This document shows positions 6,001-9,000 of a stretch of 16,850 bases of DNA, one piece after another. The position numbers are program-made. How positions within the stretch are numbered: the stretch's first letter is position 1; every line of letters begins with the position of its first letter. The stretch is from Candidatus Aenigmatarchaeota archaeon (GTDB taxonomy: Archaea; Aenigmatarchaeota; Aenigmatarchaeia; Aenigmatarchaeales; Aenigmatarchaeaceae). Location: assembly GCA_043814985.1 (NCBI GenBank), contig JBDRJK010000005.1, positions 1-16,850 on the forward strand. Reading direction: 5' to 3'.

Positions 6001-9000
6001 TGACTCTTCAATAATGCCTGCTGTCAGCAACCCTGAGCCGGACGGTCTGACCTTCAAGGAAGTGATGGACGGAGTAAGGGCTCTAGCGAAGAATCTCGTG
6101 GCAATAGATTTTGTAGAATTTGTTCCAACAAAAAATACCACTCATACCCTGATGGCAGGAAAATTAATATACCATTCCCTAGCCGAGATTGTCAAGGCTA
6201 AACTTCAGTAGATTCGAAATTCTCAGGTGCGGCTTCTGGCATTGTAGGTGTTATGTGCTTTATTATGACAACGTCTCCCACACTGGTAACCAGTTGATAT
6301 GGGACTACAACACCTTTCTTGCCGCCAACCATGTCTGCCAAAAACGAGCCCTTTCCAGTCTGGATTACCAAAGCATTGATTCTGAACTTTGACAGGTTGA
6401 CTTCAATGTCAGCTACCCTTCCACAGAAAACTCCCCTGTTGGTAAAGACATCCTTGCCAAATACCTCTGAAAGATTTTTTACTGTTACGACCATTATAAT
6501 TCCTCCAATTGATAATAATAAATTACATCGTAAATATATAAATTCCTATCAGATGTTTTAATTAGCCGAGATATTCTATGGAGAGTTTAAAAACAGTCGT
6601 GATGTCTGAAATCTGTGGCATATTTGCTGGAGATGGCACTTTATATAAGACAAATAGAAGCTTCGTTCTTGAGGTTAGGGGAGGAAAAGATGAAAAACTG
6701 TATTATGAAAATGTAGTAAAAACACTATTTGGAACAGCCTTTGATAAAAAATTAACAGTACTAAAAAGGTGCTATAATGGTGGCTATACACTTGGAATAA
6801 GAATTTGTGGCAATTTTGTTATGAACATTTTTCATAATTCTTTTGGTTTTCCTATAGGTAAAAAATCAAATATAGTAGAAGTTCCAAATTTTGTATTAAA
6901 ATCAAACGATCTTGAAATTTGGGCAGGTTATCTAAGAGGTGTGTTTGATACAGACGGTTCGATTTACTTGAAAAAGACCGGAAAAGGTAATAAATACAGA
7001 CAGCCAGTTATATCCTTCACTTCAGTTTCCCATATCCACCTACTTCAGATAAAGGAATTGTTAGATAGAATGGGATTTAATTGTTGGATAGAAAAGACTA
7101 ATTTCAGAGTTAGACTTTGTGGTTGGTCTACAATTGAAAGATTTTTAAAACTTGTAAAACCTAATAATCAAAGGCATTGGACACGAATTAAACAAAAGAT
7201 GCCAAGACTTTATGCCGAGATCGCATAATCTGGTAGTGCGCTAGATTTCGTAAGAAAGGCGAACCTGCTACCATTGGTGGAAAGTTAGTGGGCGCAAGCC
7301 CTTGAGGGTTCAAATCCCTCTCTCGGCGCTCATTTTTGGGCCGGTGGTCTAGCGGCTATGACGCCACCCTCACACGGTGGATATCGCAGGTTCGAGTCCT
7401 GCTCGGCCCACAAAAACATTTAAATTACTCTGTATAACAATGTCTTAACAAGCCCCCATCGTCTAACCCGGTTAAGGACATGAGCCCTTCGAATTCATTT
7501 TCGAAGGATATGACTCAAAGATGAATGAGGTAAGCTCAGGATGTGGGTTCAAATCCCGCTGGGGGCATTCTTTTTCTAAAACACCTCTAAAACGGCGTTT
7601 TTCGAGGGTTTTGAAAACCTTTAAAAAGCTTAGAAATTATGAATAAAGAAGGTGATTTGATGAGTTTAATTGTAAGATCTAAAGTAAAGAAAGCTGCAAA
7701 GGGTGTAAGAGTCTCTGGAGACTTTTATGACGCTTTAGACAAGAAAGTCGAAGAAGTTATCAAAGGTGCTTCTGTAAGAGCAAAGGGAAACAAGAGAGCA
7801 ACACTCAGAGCAGTTGACATATAATTTAATTTTTAGTTCCACTTTTTCTTTTTCTTTATTGTTTTAGTTAATTTTATATTAGTTCAAAAAATATTTCTCT
7901 ACAAGCAGAGGTAGCCAAGTCTGGTCAAAGGCGTAAGACTCAAGATCTTATCGGTTAGTCCGTTCGTCGGTTCGAATCCGGCCCTCTGCATTCCTATTTT
8001 TTTGGAAAACTCTAATGGGTTTAAATAATTTTATATTCTAAAATTTGGTATGACTGTACCAGTAATAAATCCCTTTAAAGATTTAGGTAAATGTTTTTAC
8101 TTTCCTGTAGAGACAACAGAAGGCTTTCTGTCTGGAACAGAACTTGCTGAATTCACAGCTGCTCCTTTAAACAAGATTCGCAGAGACCTTCTAAATAGAC
8201 CTAGATTTTATAACCCCAATGATCTTACCTTTCTGAAGCATTATATGGAAGGTAAAAAAAACAAATTGAAAATATTACCTAAAGAAGGTGTTAGTGTTGC
8301 TATAACATCAATTCATGTTGGACCAGACTATAAAGGTCCTCTAGAACTACCGCCCGGAACAGAGTGTATAAAAATTTATGATTTAGAAAGCAAGGATTAT
8401 CTCGGGGTTCAGGTGATACATTATTGTCACAGATTCAAAGGGAATAATCAAGAAGAAACAAGTTTTATACCCTTTAAAAACGAGATGAGAAGTGCACACA
8501 CTGCAGTAAAAATAGAAGATTTTGGAATCGATGAGGACCTTATTGATATTGAGGACTCATTTTCAACTCTAAAAAATTATTGGTGAAATTTACATAGAAC
8601 ACTTTTCCTTTTCTAGAGTCCAATAAGCATTTAAATAGTTGAGAACAACACTTCTTTATAATAAAATGAGGAGTAATGAAAATGCCATTCGATAGAAACA
8701 GACGATTTGATGACAGAAGAGGCGGAAGCGGCGGAGGCGGCTTTAGCGGAGGCAGAGGCGGAAGTATGGGCGGAGATAGGAGTTTTGACAGAGGCCCAAG
8801 GGAAATGCATAAAGCTGTTTGTTCTGAGTGCGGGAAGGAATGTGAAGTTCCTTTTAAGCCAACAGAAGGAAAGCCTGTATTTTGTAGAGATTGTTTTGCT
8901 AAGAAAAGACCAAGAAGGTTTTAGTTAGTTTCCTAAGAGATTATCTTTCTCTTAATGAGAGCTAGGTTCCGTTTTTTATTTATTAATTTTCAAATAAGAA

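Follow-up and report, generated by a model that had tools for sequence, protein, structure and literature searches.

A LAGLIDADG endonuclease gene lodged at the 5' end of an archaeal tRNA-Ser(GCU) gene, part of a probable selfish element that carries tRNA sequence with it

For two decades it has been debated how the tRNA genes of archaea came to have oddly placed introns, fragments and split forms, and we know of no vehicle that has been observed for them. SegB of phage T4, a free-standing GIY-YIG endonuclease encoded in the phage tRNA gene cluster, targets the tRNA gene region. In fungal mitochondria, mobile endonuclease ORFs of the Allomyces atp6 type reportedly bring with them a replacement end of the gene that they target. 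Collaborative homing at psbA was studied by Zeng, Bonocora and Shub. Pairs of a free-standing endonuclease and an ORF-less intron are described for F-CphI and psbA of cyanophage S-PM2 and for T4 mobE and the defunct I-TevIII intron (PMC2790892, PMC6083498). For archaeal tRNA genes, the paper of Sugahara et al. (2012; PMC3293823) describes a tRNA-Thr(GGU) locus of Caldiarchaeum subterraneum at which a 5' fragment is followed by an insertion and then by a copy of the tRNA with one more intron, and proposes intron gain via a mobile element; the insertion, of 1.8 kb, encodes a recombinase and resembles a transposable or plasmid-like element. How protein-spliced introns reach tRNA genes is still treated as open in a 2026 Asgard census.

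The locus described here lies in the window, the whole stretch of 16,850 nt that was analysed, and comprises a LAGLIDADG endonuclease gene set against the 5' end of a tRNA-Ser(GCU) gene. As in F-CphI/psbA and mobE/I-TevIII, the endonuclease gene adjoins, and stays outside, a gene with a small ORF-less intron; intron-only, intron-plus-ORF and naive alleles coexist, and the target is presumably split by the intron. Those systems, however, consist of phage genes, self-splicing group I introns and HNH or Endo VII-like enzymes, whereas here a cellular archaeon has a tRNA target, a protein-spliced bulge-helix-bulge intron and a LAGLIDADG enzyme; cleavage at the intron site has been shown for the collaborative-homing systems and is proposed for the window. 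With the Allomyces atp6 type the locus has in common that an intronless endonuclease ORF has entered a gene and brought a substitute for the displaced part, of which the original is left as a dead remnant, although there the target is a protein gene and the carried copy can differ by synonymous changes, whereas here the target is a tRNA and the difference is supplied by an intron or by a foreign tRNA. T4 SegB is likewise a free-standing homing endonuclease gene with a tRNA gene region as its target, but it belongs to a phage and to another enzyme family and comes without introns or remnants. Compared with the Caldiarchaeum insertion, cassettes of the window type are 0.65-0.9 kb long, encode a LAGLIDADG protein and are found again and again, beside numerous tRNA genes of numerous lineages.

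The ORF, at positions 6578-7228 on the forward strand, encodes 216 aa and matches the Pfam family LAGLIDADG_3 (PF14528; E 1e-10), scoring 42.1 bits where the curated cut-off is 22.5; a PF14528 search of its own genome, in which the open frame was taken as 220 aa, gave seven loci above the cut-off and one below it, on contig C12. It has two motifs with both acidic residues kept: D19 and D126 correspond to the invariant acidic residues of the two LAGLIDADG motifs in an alignment of five tRNA-side paralogues, and among tRNA-adjacent ORFs at large the catalytic acidic residue is present in 61 of 63 cases for motif 1 and in 63 of 63 for motif 2. A profile built from the five paralogues matched I-DmoI (E 4e-6, query 13-203), I-Tsp061I (2dch; E 1.2e-8), PI-PfuI (E 1.1e-10) and the endonuclease domains of V-ATPase inteins (E 1.6e-14). 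I-DmoI, I-Tsp061I and the intein endonuclease domains are the closest solved relatives by sequence and, like the window ORF, are monomeric, two-motif and archaeal, although their ORFs sit within the spliced element, whereas that of the window lies outside the tRNA introns and any group I intron. Judged by these matches, the window ORF is an intact gene for a two-domain LAGLIDADG endonuclease of the I-DmoI type. It also reads as a free-standing, intronless gene: an Rfam search over 6565-7213 at E<=1 returned no group I intron, the sole match being a chance sRNA below its cut-off. The orthologue in the related genome G012, 50% (blastp) to 60% (alignment) identical, lacks 40 residues of the first domain and appears to be a decaying ORF. 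A single-protein search of a genome-contig collection found no relative of the window ORF, and among the viral contigs searched there were four weak matches (26-33% identity) and no sign of a viral carrier. An integrase-borne tRNA-gene element of the SSV or pNOB8 type was ruled out; such elements have an integrase or recombinase gene and duplicate part of the tRNA as an att site, whereas the 649 bp here carry the LAGLIDADG ORF alone and the repeat is 8 bp long and at the 5' end.

The presence/absence segment, the ORF-bearing part of the cassette, spans 6565-7213 (649 bp, forward strand) as defined by comparison with relatives and public sequencing runs. The survey's finding had described it as a cassette bounded by an 8-bp direct repeat, GCCGAGAT, which is indeed present at 6565-6572 and 7214-7221; the upstream copy (forward strand) equals tRNA positions 1-8, forms the left indel border and is probably what remains of the resident tRNA 5' end. 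Because a third copy lies at 6182-6189 (3 observed against 0.17 expected, a count of 3 being reached in 1 of 200 shuffles), the 8-mer by itself is weak evidence, and the 8-nt remnant is not significant alone in our remnant test (p 0.25). At the 3' end of the ORF, 7199-7213 (forward strand) looks like the tRNA 5' end copied a second time, in degenerate form, and encodes the conserved C-terminal Met-Pro-Arg; a similar 14-bp tandem precedes tRNA-Ser(GGA) at C13:26804-26833 and is also seen before the G001 tRNA. The ORF has no stop codon of its own, as the survey had it: the last 15 nt lie within the tRNA, and the frame closes at a TAA at 7226-7228 in the D-arm, so that translation would run on until conserved D-loop nucleotides supply the stop codon. 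A TATA-like box at 6533-6543 (forward strand), now in front of the ORF, is by its spacing the likely original promoter of tRNA-Ser(GCU). It starts 29-32 nt 5' of 6565, with most stand-alone tRNA genes of the genome having theirs at -31 to -34, and the same box precedes the intact tRNA-Ser(GCU) gene in the congener G002; no TATA-like box was found in the region before 7214. Since the ORF begins just past the expected transcription start of the old tRNA promoter (by 13 nt), ORF and tRNA are probably transcribed together, and the tRNA would be freed by RNase P and the splicing endonuclease.

The tRNA-Ser(GCU) gene itself (7214-7328, forward strand) is 115 nt long, 84 nt without its two introns, according to Rfam and a cloverleaf parse. 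It scores 39.1 bits with RF00005 (gathering score 29) and is not detected by ARAGORN; its exon borders are set by intronless 85-nt orthologues in six relatives. A non-canonical intron of 19 nt lies at tRNA position 30/31 (7244-7262) and a canonical one of 12 nt at position 37/38 (7270-7281), both on the forward strand. Bulge-helix-bulge motifs were read by hand for these two introns of the window. The 30/31 intron would fold into a relaxed version, with a helix between tRNA positions 25-28 and intron positions -6 to -3 and a 3-nt bulge at each of the two splice sites, and contains a 4-bp hairpin with a GNRA-type loop. Our tRNA finder and intron parser are heuristics with an ambiguity of 1-2 nt, checked against 35 Rfam tRNAs of the window's genome.

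The locus shows a precise insertion/absence polymorphism, with empty intronless alleles in several genera. Six relatives (G002, G003, G006, G013, G019 and G020) have the flank joined directly to the tRNA gene, among them G013, in which an empty site had already been noted; in G002, of the same genus and with a flank ~90% identical, the tRNA begins exactly at the upstream repeat copy, position 6565. These make up 6 of 10 syntenic loci in relatives, with an intronless tRNA in the promoter-proximal position. The empty public contig of the survey was recovered as well: 12,776 bp long and from run X4, it skips 6565-7213, with 8 letters that fit both sides, and lacks the 12-nt intron at 7270-7281. 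That intron is also missing from G002, and G001 has a similar one of 12 nt. One contig of run X5 is empty and without both introns, and in both runs the joint passes from 6564 to 7214. The 30/31 intron is missing from G002, five other relatives and the X5 contig and is retained in the empty X4 contig. The occupied form recurs in runs X2 and X3, which cover the segment with 0 differences, as had been reported. The X4 sample also holds a 180-nt contig ~89% identical to ORF positions 6772-6951. Precise presence and absence are found at the Ser(GGA), Ile(GAU) and Arg(CCU) loci too.

These alleles bear on the direction of the change. If the ORF were ancestral, the empty alleles would be deletions between the 8-bp repeats and the polymorphism the loss of a decaying relic, which we consider very unlikely. 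The direct repeat would permit precise deletion, and ORF type A is old at tRNA-Ser(GCU), given the 50-60% identity of the G012 orthologue and distant homologues in other phyla. However, separate precise losses would be needed in G002, in G003, in G006 and in the genus of G013, G019 and G020, each together with both introns; the site hosts an unrelated ORF lineage, type B, in G001 and G016, where type A is that of the window's genome (G000) and G012; the promoter stands before the upstream copy; and the foreign tRNA on contig C13, described below, is a gain and not a loss.

According to the survey, five of the seven LAGLIDADG genes of this genome lie beside tRNA genes as mobile cassettes aimed at them. 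The count stands, as do the coordinates given for the five, with four genes co-oriented and upstream and one divergent, and the reading is supported in that indel, borders, empty alleles and repeated adjacency all hold; the genome, which is Aenigmatarchaeota-like (DPANN), probably carries five such elements or more, that of the window included. The pattern is, moreover, far wider than had been noted, extending through the family and across DPANN. Among further small LAGLIDADG ORFs in the family 15 of 61 are tRNA-adjacent, against 0.19 expected from a chance rate of ~0.003 of ORFs for a co-oriented tRNA start within -40 to +100 nt of the ORF stop, and DPANN-wide at least 43 of 61 homologue loci are tRNA-adjacent by our own detector, with ~8 more by eye; related genomes are non-independent samples for these counts and for those of introns. 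The DPANN-wide ORFs abut or overlap the tRNA 5' end, with recurring offsets of -10, -15 and -22, and more distant homologues precede tRNA-Ser(GCU) in other phyla. None of the papers listed by the literature searches describes LAGLIDADG genes beside tRNA genes in DPANN or other archaea. Two further loci gave negative results: the gap between tRNA-Val and tRNA-Arg(UCG) has no LAGLIDADG remnant in G001, G003, G012, G013 or G016, and no clean empty site was found for tRNA-Pro(GGG) (locus C15a), which in G001 and G002 is inverted relative to its flanks, with a 293-aa gene (~900 nt) in between in G002. The tRNA-Val/tRNA-Arg(UCG) gap of G001 and G003 holds an unrelated small ORF.

A host function would be compatible as well with the strong conservation of the motif and with the place before tRNA-Arg(UCG), which is fixed across many phyla. 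The proteins might have been domesticated and co-expressed with the tRNA, serving in pre-tRNA folding or processing in the manner of a maturase or as DNA-binding regulators; the near-constant place before tRNA-Arg(UCG) or tRNA-Ser(GCU) in several DPANN phyla, an almost invariant first motif and the probable co-transcription all agree with this, and LAGLIDADG maturases are known for group I introns. We nevertheless hold domestication to be quite unlikely. Occupancy of one locus is patchy within a genus (type A in G000, type B in G001, none in the congeners G002 and G003), one orthologue, that of G012, is decaying, and a maturase would find no intron to act on in many of the partner tRNAs. The two catalytic acidic residues, which are often lost in maturases, are retained, and remnants and whole-gene replacement are marks of invasion.

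Such marks are seen on contig C13, where a cassette at 9218-10124 consists of an ORF and a complete foreign tRNA-Arg(CCU) with two introns, inside a wrecked resident gene. All that is left of the resident flanks the cassette, 12 nt at one end (as in G002 throughout) and 28 nt at the other (27 of them identical). The 12-nt copy of the tRNA 5' end is the one that the survey had placed at C13:9206-9217, and the resident has lost positions 13 to ~45, a gap centred near position 29. Remnant, ORF and working substitute occur together at this locus, as in the Allomyces atp6 type, and nine further loci have significant tRNA 5' copies upstream of the ORF, four in the family (G004:C4, G011:C93, G004:C20 and G011:C62) and five DPANN-wide (L108, L114, L131, L149 and L155); in the same remnant test 15 of 22 family pairs and 35 of 40 DPANN-wide pairs showed no significant upstream copy. 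The long Ser(GCU) remnants end at the intron site (position 30 in L114, 28 in L131 and 29 in L155), and the C13b remnant ends near position 30; of the scored remnants only 5 of 12 end at the intron position, including all three long Ser(GCU) ones. The survey had equated the cassette with the 649 bp, and the borders of that indel are exact, but the mobile unit is larger and includes tRNA: the whole foreign tRNA at C13:9218-10124, and a 5' part with an intron elsewhere. That it carries tRNA sequence and leaves remnants of the resident gene behind is new.

Since 5' exon copies of the Ser(GCU) lineage end at positions 28-30, the point of attack in this lineage may be the anticodon stem rather than the 5' end. 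An alternative is an enzyme that homes to the tRNA 5' border, at a site made up of upstream flank and tRNA positions 1-20 and split by the ORF, the introns being unrelated passengers on a shared haplotype. The G000/G002 breakpoints do fall within tRNA positions 1-8, G012 carries a short remnant at the same place as G000, and 20 of 43 DPANN-wide partner tRNAs are intronless, yet the ORF stands before them at the recurring offsets. Homing to the 5' border is in our judgement unlikely all the same: because upstream flanks are not conserved between lineages, a site that spans the flank could not support spread across phyla; the long remnants end at 28-30 and not at 1-8; the loss from the resident tRNA-Arg(CCU) is centred well inside the gene; and within the family ORF and intron are strongly associated.

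The same exon copies could suggest that the elements represent bulge-helix-bulge introns at tRNA position 29/30 with an ORF inside, or derive from such introns, the upstream exon copy being spliceable and splicing excising the ORF RNA. Set against an intronless gene, all the sequence between the upstream exon copy and the exon that follows the short intron falls exactly at the intron site, the upstream copy in L114 (a complete Woesearchaeota-type genome) matches the working copy at 29 of 30 positions and comes with a TATA-like box of its own, and archaeal rRNA introns are described as bearing such ORFs. But the window's 8-nt copy cannot form a 4-bp central helix with the 3' end of the cassette when paired by hand, and the 18 loci lacking a detected tRNA include none without an internal exon copy; such an origin seems to us extremely improbable. 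For the window, a 649-nt bulge-helix-bulge intron was rejected because no central helix is possible around the cassette, exon positions 3-6 not being complementary to cassette positions -6 to -3.

The link between endonuclease and intron drawn in the survey is strong in the family and not universal beyond it. In G000, 4 of 6 tRNAs with a non-canonical intron in the 5' half are LAGLIDADG-adjacent, against 1 of 30 others (p 0.0012); such an intron is found in 17 of 22 family pairs and in 5 of 20 non-adjacent tRNAs at the same loci, and at the Ser(GCU) locus in 4 of 4 occupied and 1 of 8 empty alleles. Three of the 22 family pairs are intronless. DPANN-wide, 20 of 43 partner tRNAs lack introns and 11 have anticodon-loop introns only, so the intron is not a general immunity device. 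Intron-only alleles with an ancestral upstream flank occur in G001 (Ser-GGA and Ile-GAU) and in the X4 contig; they could equally well reflect introns that arrived first.

Taken with the empty alleles and the remnants, these features make it reasonably probable, in our view, that 6565-7213 belongs, as its ORF-bearing part, to a selfish homing-endonuclease element which invaded tRNA-Ser(GCU) and installs a resistant replacement. Where occupied and naive alleles meet in one cell, the enzyme would cut the naive tRNA gene, which has no intron, and the break would be repaired from the occupied allele. In the Ser(GCU) lineage the cut would most likely fall in the anticodon stem near positions 28-31. 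The ORF would lie only ~30 nt from the cut and because of this short distance would usually be transferred together with the 5' part of the tRNA and its short intron, while short repair tracts would yield intron-only alleles. The intron would split the recognition sequence in the DNA, but the tRNA splicing endonuclease would excise it from the transcript, leaving the occupied allele immune and its tRNA functional. With a donor that has no matching flank, the left end would be joined illegitimately, and the resident 5' part (8 nt here) or the whole resident gene would remain as a dead remnant.

The broader proposition, that non-canonical tRNA introns and horizontal tRNA-gene replacement in DPANN are driven by LAGLIDADG homing endonucleases, with the intron as immunity device and 3' stub, we put forward tentatively, as a possibility somewhat short of likely. 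Were it true, the short intron would be part of a mobile insertion at the cut site of the enzyme that spreads with the ORF or alone and outlives it, and there would be a concrete route by which protein-spliced introns enter tRNA genes. The vehicle would be small and recurrent, seen as naive site, ORF plus intron, intron only, whole-gene replacement and decaying ORF, with these states found at four tRNA loci in one genus and the same pairing across DPANN phyla. The cassettes show tRNA genes themselves moving between lineages and explain why standard tRNA finders fail on these genes. They also provide natural LAGLIDADG enzymes as a set in which the neighbouring gene allows a guess at each target, and the pairing hints at a way for unusual tRNA introns and entire tRNA genes to spread.

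Between the arginase-family gene and the PRC-barrel gene that flank this locus, the window encodes on the forward strand a LAGLIDADG endonuclease ORF of 216 aa (6578-7228) that matches Pfam LAGLIDADG_3 (PF14528; E 1e-10, 42.1 bits, cut-off 22.5) and has two LAGLIDADG motifs, the acidic residue being present in both. A profile built from the five tRNA-adjacent LAGLIDADG paralogues of this genome (G000) matched the solved structures of I-DmoI, I-Tsp061I (2dch), PI-PfuI and V-ATPase intein endonuclease domains. The ORF has 15 nt in common with a tRNA gene at 7214-7328, whose D-loop nucleotides supply its TAA stop. 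Rfam scores this gene at 39.1 bits (gathering score 29); ARAGORN did not find it, and it is identified as tRNA-Ser(GCU) because of its 85-nt orthologues and its cloverleaf parse. Two introns interrupt it, one of 19 nt at position 30/31 (7244-7262) and one of 12 nt at 37/38 (7270-7281). On manual inspection, the 30/31 intron contains a 4-bp hairpin and is compatible with a relaxed bulge-helix-bulge motif, in which intron positions -6 to -3 pair with tRNA positions 25-28 and leave a 3-nt bulge at each splice site. ARAGORN found two of the window's four tRNAs and miscalled intron-bearing Ser(GCU) genes in relatives; a 112-nt tRNA-Gln(UUG) with a 39-nt intron (C13:20278-20389) was found by an intron-tolerant finder and missed by the RF00005 genome search. 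The repeat GCCGAGAT, tRNA positions 1-8, starts at 6565 and again at 7214; a further copy (6182-6189, within the arginase-family gene) is taken as chance, so the 8-mer on its own is little proof.

Comparison of the syntenic Ser(GCU) locus across ten relatives shows the flank fused straight to an intronless tRNA in six (G002, G003, G006, G013, G019 and G020), of which G002 and G003 belong to the same genus as G000. The G002 flanks are ~90% identical to the window's, and its tRNA starts at the exact place of the upstream repeat copy. The remaining four relatives are occupied, among them G012, with an orthologue of the window's ORF (type A; 50% identity by blastp, 60% by pairwise alignment; a 40-residue deletion in the first domain), and G001, of the same genus as G000, and G016, which carry a different LAGLIDADG lineage (type B) at the same site. 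Among public DNA runs, contigs of X2 and X3 are occupied and show 0 differences; one contig of X4 (12,776 bp) omits 6565-7213, with 8 letters fitting both sides, and keeps the 19-nt intron without the 12-nt one, and one X5 contig is of the empty form and has neither intron. A non-canonical intron is present in all four occupied alleles (type A alleles have it near 29-31, type B alleles at 8/9 or in the D-arm) and in one of eight empty alleles, that of X4 (Fisher p 0.01, the related genomes not being independent). The X4 sample also yielded a 180-nt contig ~89% identical to the ORF at 6772-6951 (19 differences, depth 3.2), and together with the empty 12.8-kb contig this suggests that occupied and empty relatives may coexist there.

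The association is not confined to this locus. PF14528 exceeds its cut-off at seven loci of the 808-kb genome; four of these ORFs lie directly 5' of a co-oriented tRNA (Ser-GCU, Arg-CCU, Ser-GGA and Pro-GGG) and a fifth is divergent beside tRNA-Ile(GAU). With 35 tRNAs detected by RF00005 and one more by the intron-tolerant finder, LAGLIDADG-adjacent genes are four of the six with a non-canonical 5'-half intron versus one of the 30 others (p 0.0012). For the family we surveyed, among the matches listed (150 of the 189 PF14528 matches in 21 genomes), all 64 ORFs in genomes other than G000 whose open frame is at most 420 aa, larger intein-like frames being left out, and counted three at the Ser(GCU) locus apart. 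Fifteen of the other 61 have a co-oriented tRNA whose start is offset by -26 to +91 nt relative to the ORF stop, where 0.19 were expected. Among these listed matches, 17 of 22 co-oriented pairs carry a non-canonical intron in the 5' half (at positions 28-31 in 11 and 8-26 in six), two a canonical intron only and three none; such an intron occurs in five of 20 non-adjacent tRNAs of the same loci.

The mobile unit includes tRNA sequence. In G002 tRNA-Arg(CCU) is a single intact, intronless gene; the G000 insert is flanked by the first 12 nt (identical to G002) and last 28 nt (27 identical) of the resident, which therefore lacks positions 13 to ~45, and consists of the ORF, a complete different two-intron tRNA-Arg(CCU) with its own TATA-like box, closer to the G013 version than to the resident gene, and 22 nt. 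The tRNA 3'-half-like sequence directly 3' of this tRNA (C13:10125-10152; L079:1926-1953) is the 3' remnant of the resident gene destroyed by the cassette. At tRNA-Ser(GGA), G000 has a piece of the old tRNA to about position 30 upstream of the ORF, G001 has an intron without an ORF, with the ancestral flank kept and compensatory changes in the intron hairpin, and G002, G003 and G013 lack both ORF and intron. At tRNA-Ile(GAU), the intron accompanies an inverted ORF in G000 and a co-oriented orthologue (55% identical) in G010, stands alone in G001, and is missing with the ORF from G002, G003 and G013. At G004:C4, G011:C93, G004:C20 and G011:C62, local alignment scored against shuffles revealed significant copies of the 5' part of the tRNA upstream.

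Searching with the G000/G012 alignment gave 61 loci, G012 itself included, in species genomes labelled as Aenigmat-, Woese-, Iain-, Nano-, Pace- and Micrarchaeota, a set biased to one clade because it was retrieved by two peptide patterns. At 43, a co-oriented tRNA has its start offset by -60 to +150 nt relative to the ORF stop, and by eye ~8 of the other 18 also adjoin a tRNA or leave the contig inside one. ORF stops recur at offsets of -10, -15 and -22, places at which conserved tRNA nucleotides supply a stop codon for every frame. tRNA-Arg(UCG), the most frequent partner of this ORF clade across DPANN, and tRNA-Ser(GCU) make up most of the partners. The window's own tRNA-Arg(UCG) (7452-7567; tRNA-Val ends 41 nt upstream) has no LAGLIDADG ORF and apparently has a 13-nt intron near 30/31 and a 28-nt intron near 37/38, the parse being uncertain; it may represent an intron-only state. 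Between this gene and the next, G002:C10 (L017) has ~850 extra nt with an 81-aa ORF between matches to 7574 and 7584, and G003 ~500 extra nt with a 143-aa ORF. Directly 3' of tRNA-Leu(CAA), a 626-bp segment (7991-8616) encodes a 178-aa ORF (8050-8586) with no Pfam match; an X5 contig links 7990 to 8617 via 18 other letters, which makes the segment a second indel bordering a tRNA.

Upstream remnants were significant in five of 40 tested DPANN-wide pairs. In the three long Ser(GCU) examples (L114, L131 and L155) the old copy of the exon extends to position 30, 28 and 29, respectively, the exact intron site of the working copy; a spacer that has a TATA-like box of its own then separates it from the ORF. 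At L155:1240-1390 two nested tRNA-Ser(GCU) 5'-end copies precede a single LAGLIDADG ORF, as though two invasions of the gene had taken place. The window's 8-nt remnant is equally compatible with an endonuclease that homes to the 5' end of tRNA genes, the introns being mere passengers. Of the 43 DPANN-wide partners, nine have a 5'-half intron, 11 anticodon-loop introns only and 20 none (three unparsed), and the many intronless partners outside this family are a weak point of reading the introns as conferring immunity.

By analogy with known homing endonucleases, the comparative evidence is most likely explained by homing into tRNA genes that installs an immune copy. The enzyme would cut a naive tRNA gene, and repair templated by an occupied allele would copy the ORF with the nearby part of the tRNA; an intron at the cut site would make the installed copy immune, and splicing of its RNA would still yield a normal tRNA. 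Intron-only alleles would result from short repair tracts, and a donor without flank homology would leave remnants or destroy the resident gene. A TATA-like box at 6533-6543 has a spacing to 6565 typical of G000 tRNA promoters and none was found before 7214, so the old tRNA promoter probably drives the ORF, in a single transcript with the tRNA.

The same logic appears in free-standing phage endonucleases working with ORF-less introns. Mitochondrial mobile ORFs bring a replacement end of their target gene, a logic that the tRNA cassettes match. A study of group I introns in archaea reports LAGLIDADG ORFs only within rRNA introns. The nearest archaeal precedent is a tRNA-Thr locus of Caldiarchaeum, at which an extra intron was linked to a 5' tRNA fragment and a recombinase element of 1.8 kb (PMC3293823). 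No account connecting LAGLIDADG genes with tRNA genes in archaea came up in our literature searches; the interest of these cassettes lies in their recurrence, in the several states in which they are caught, and in their being immediately testable.
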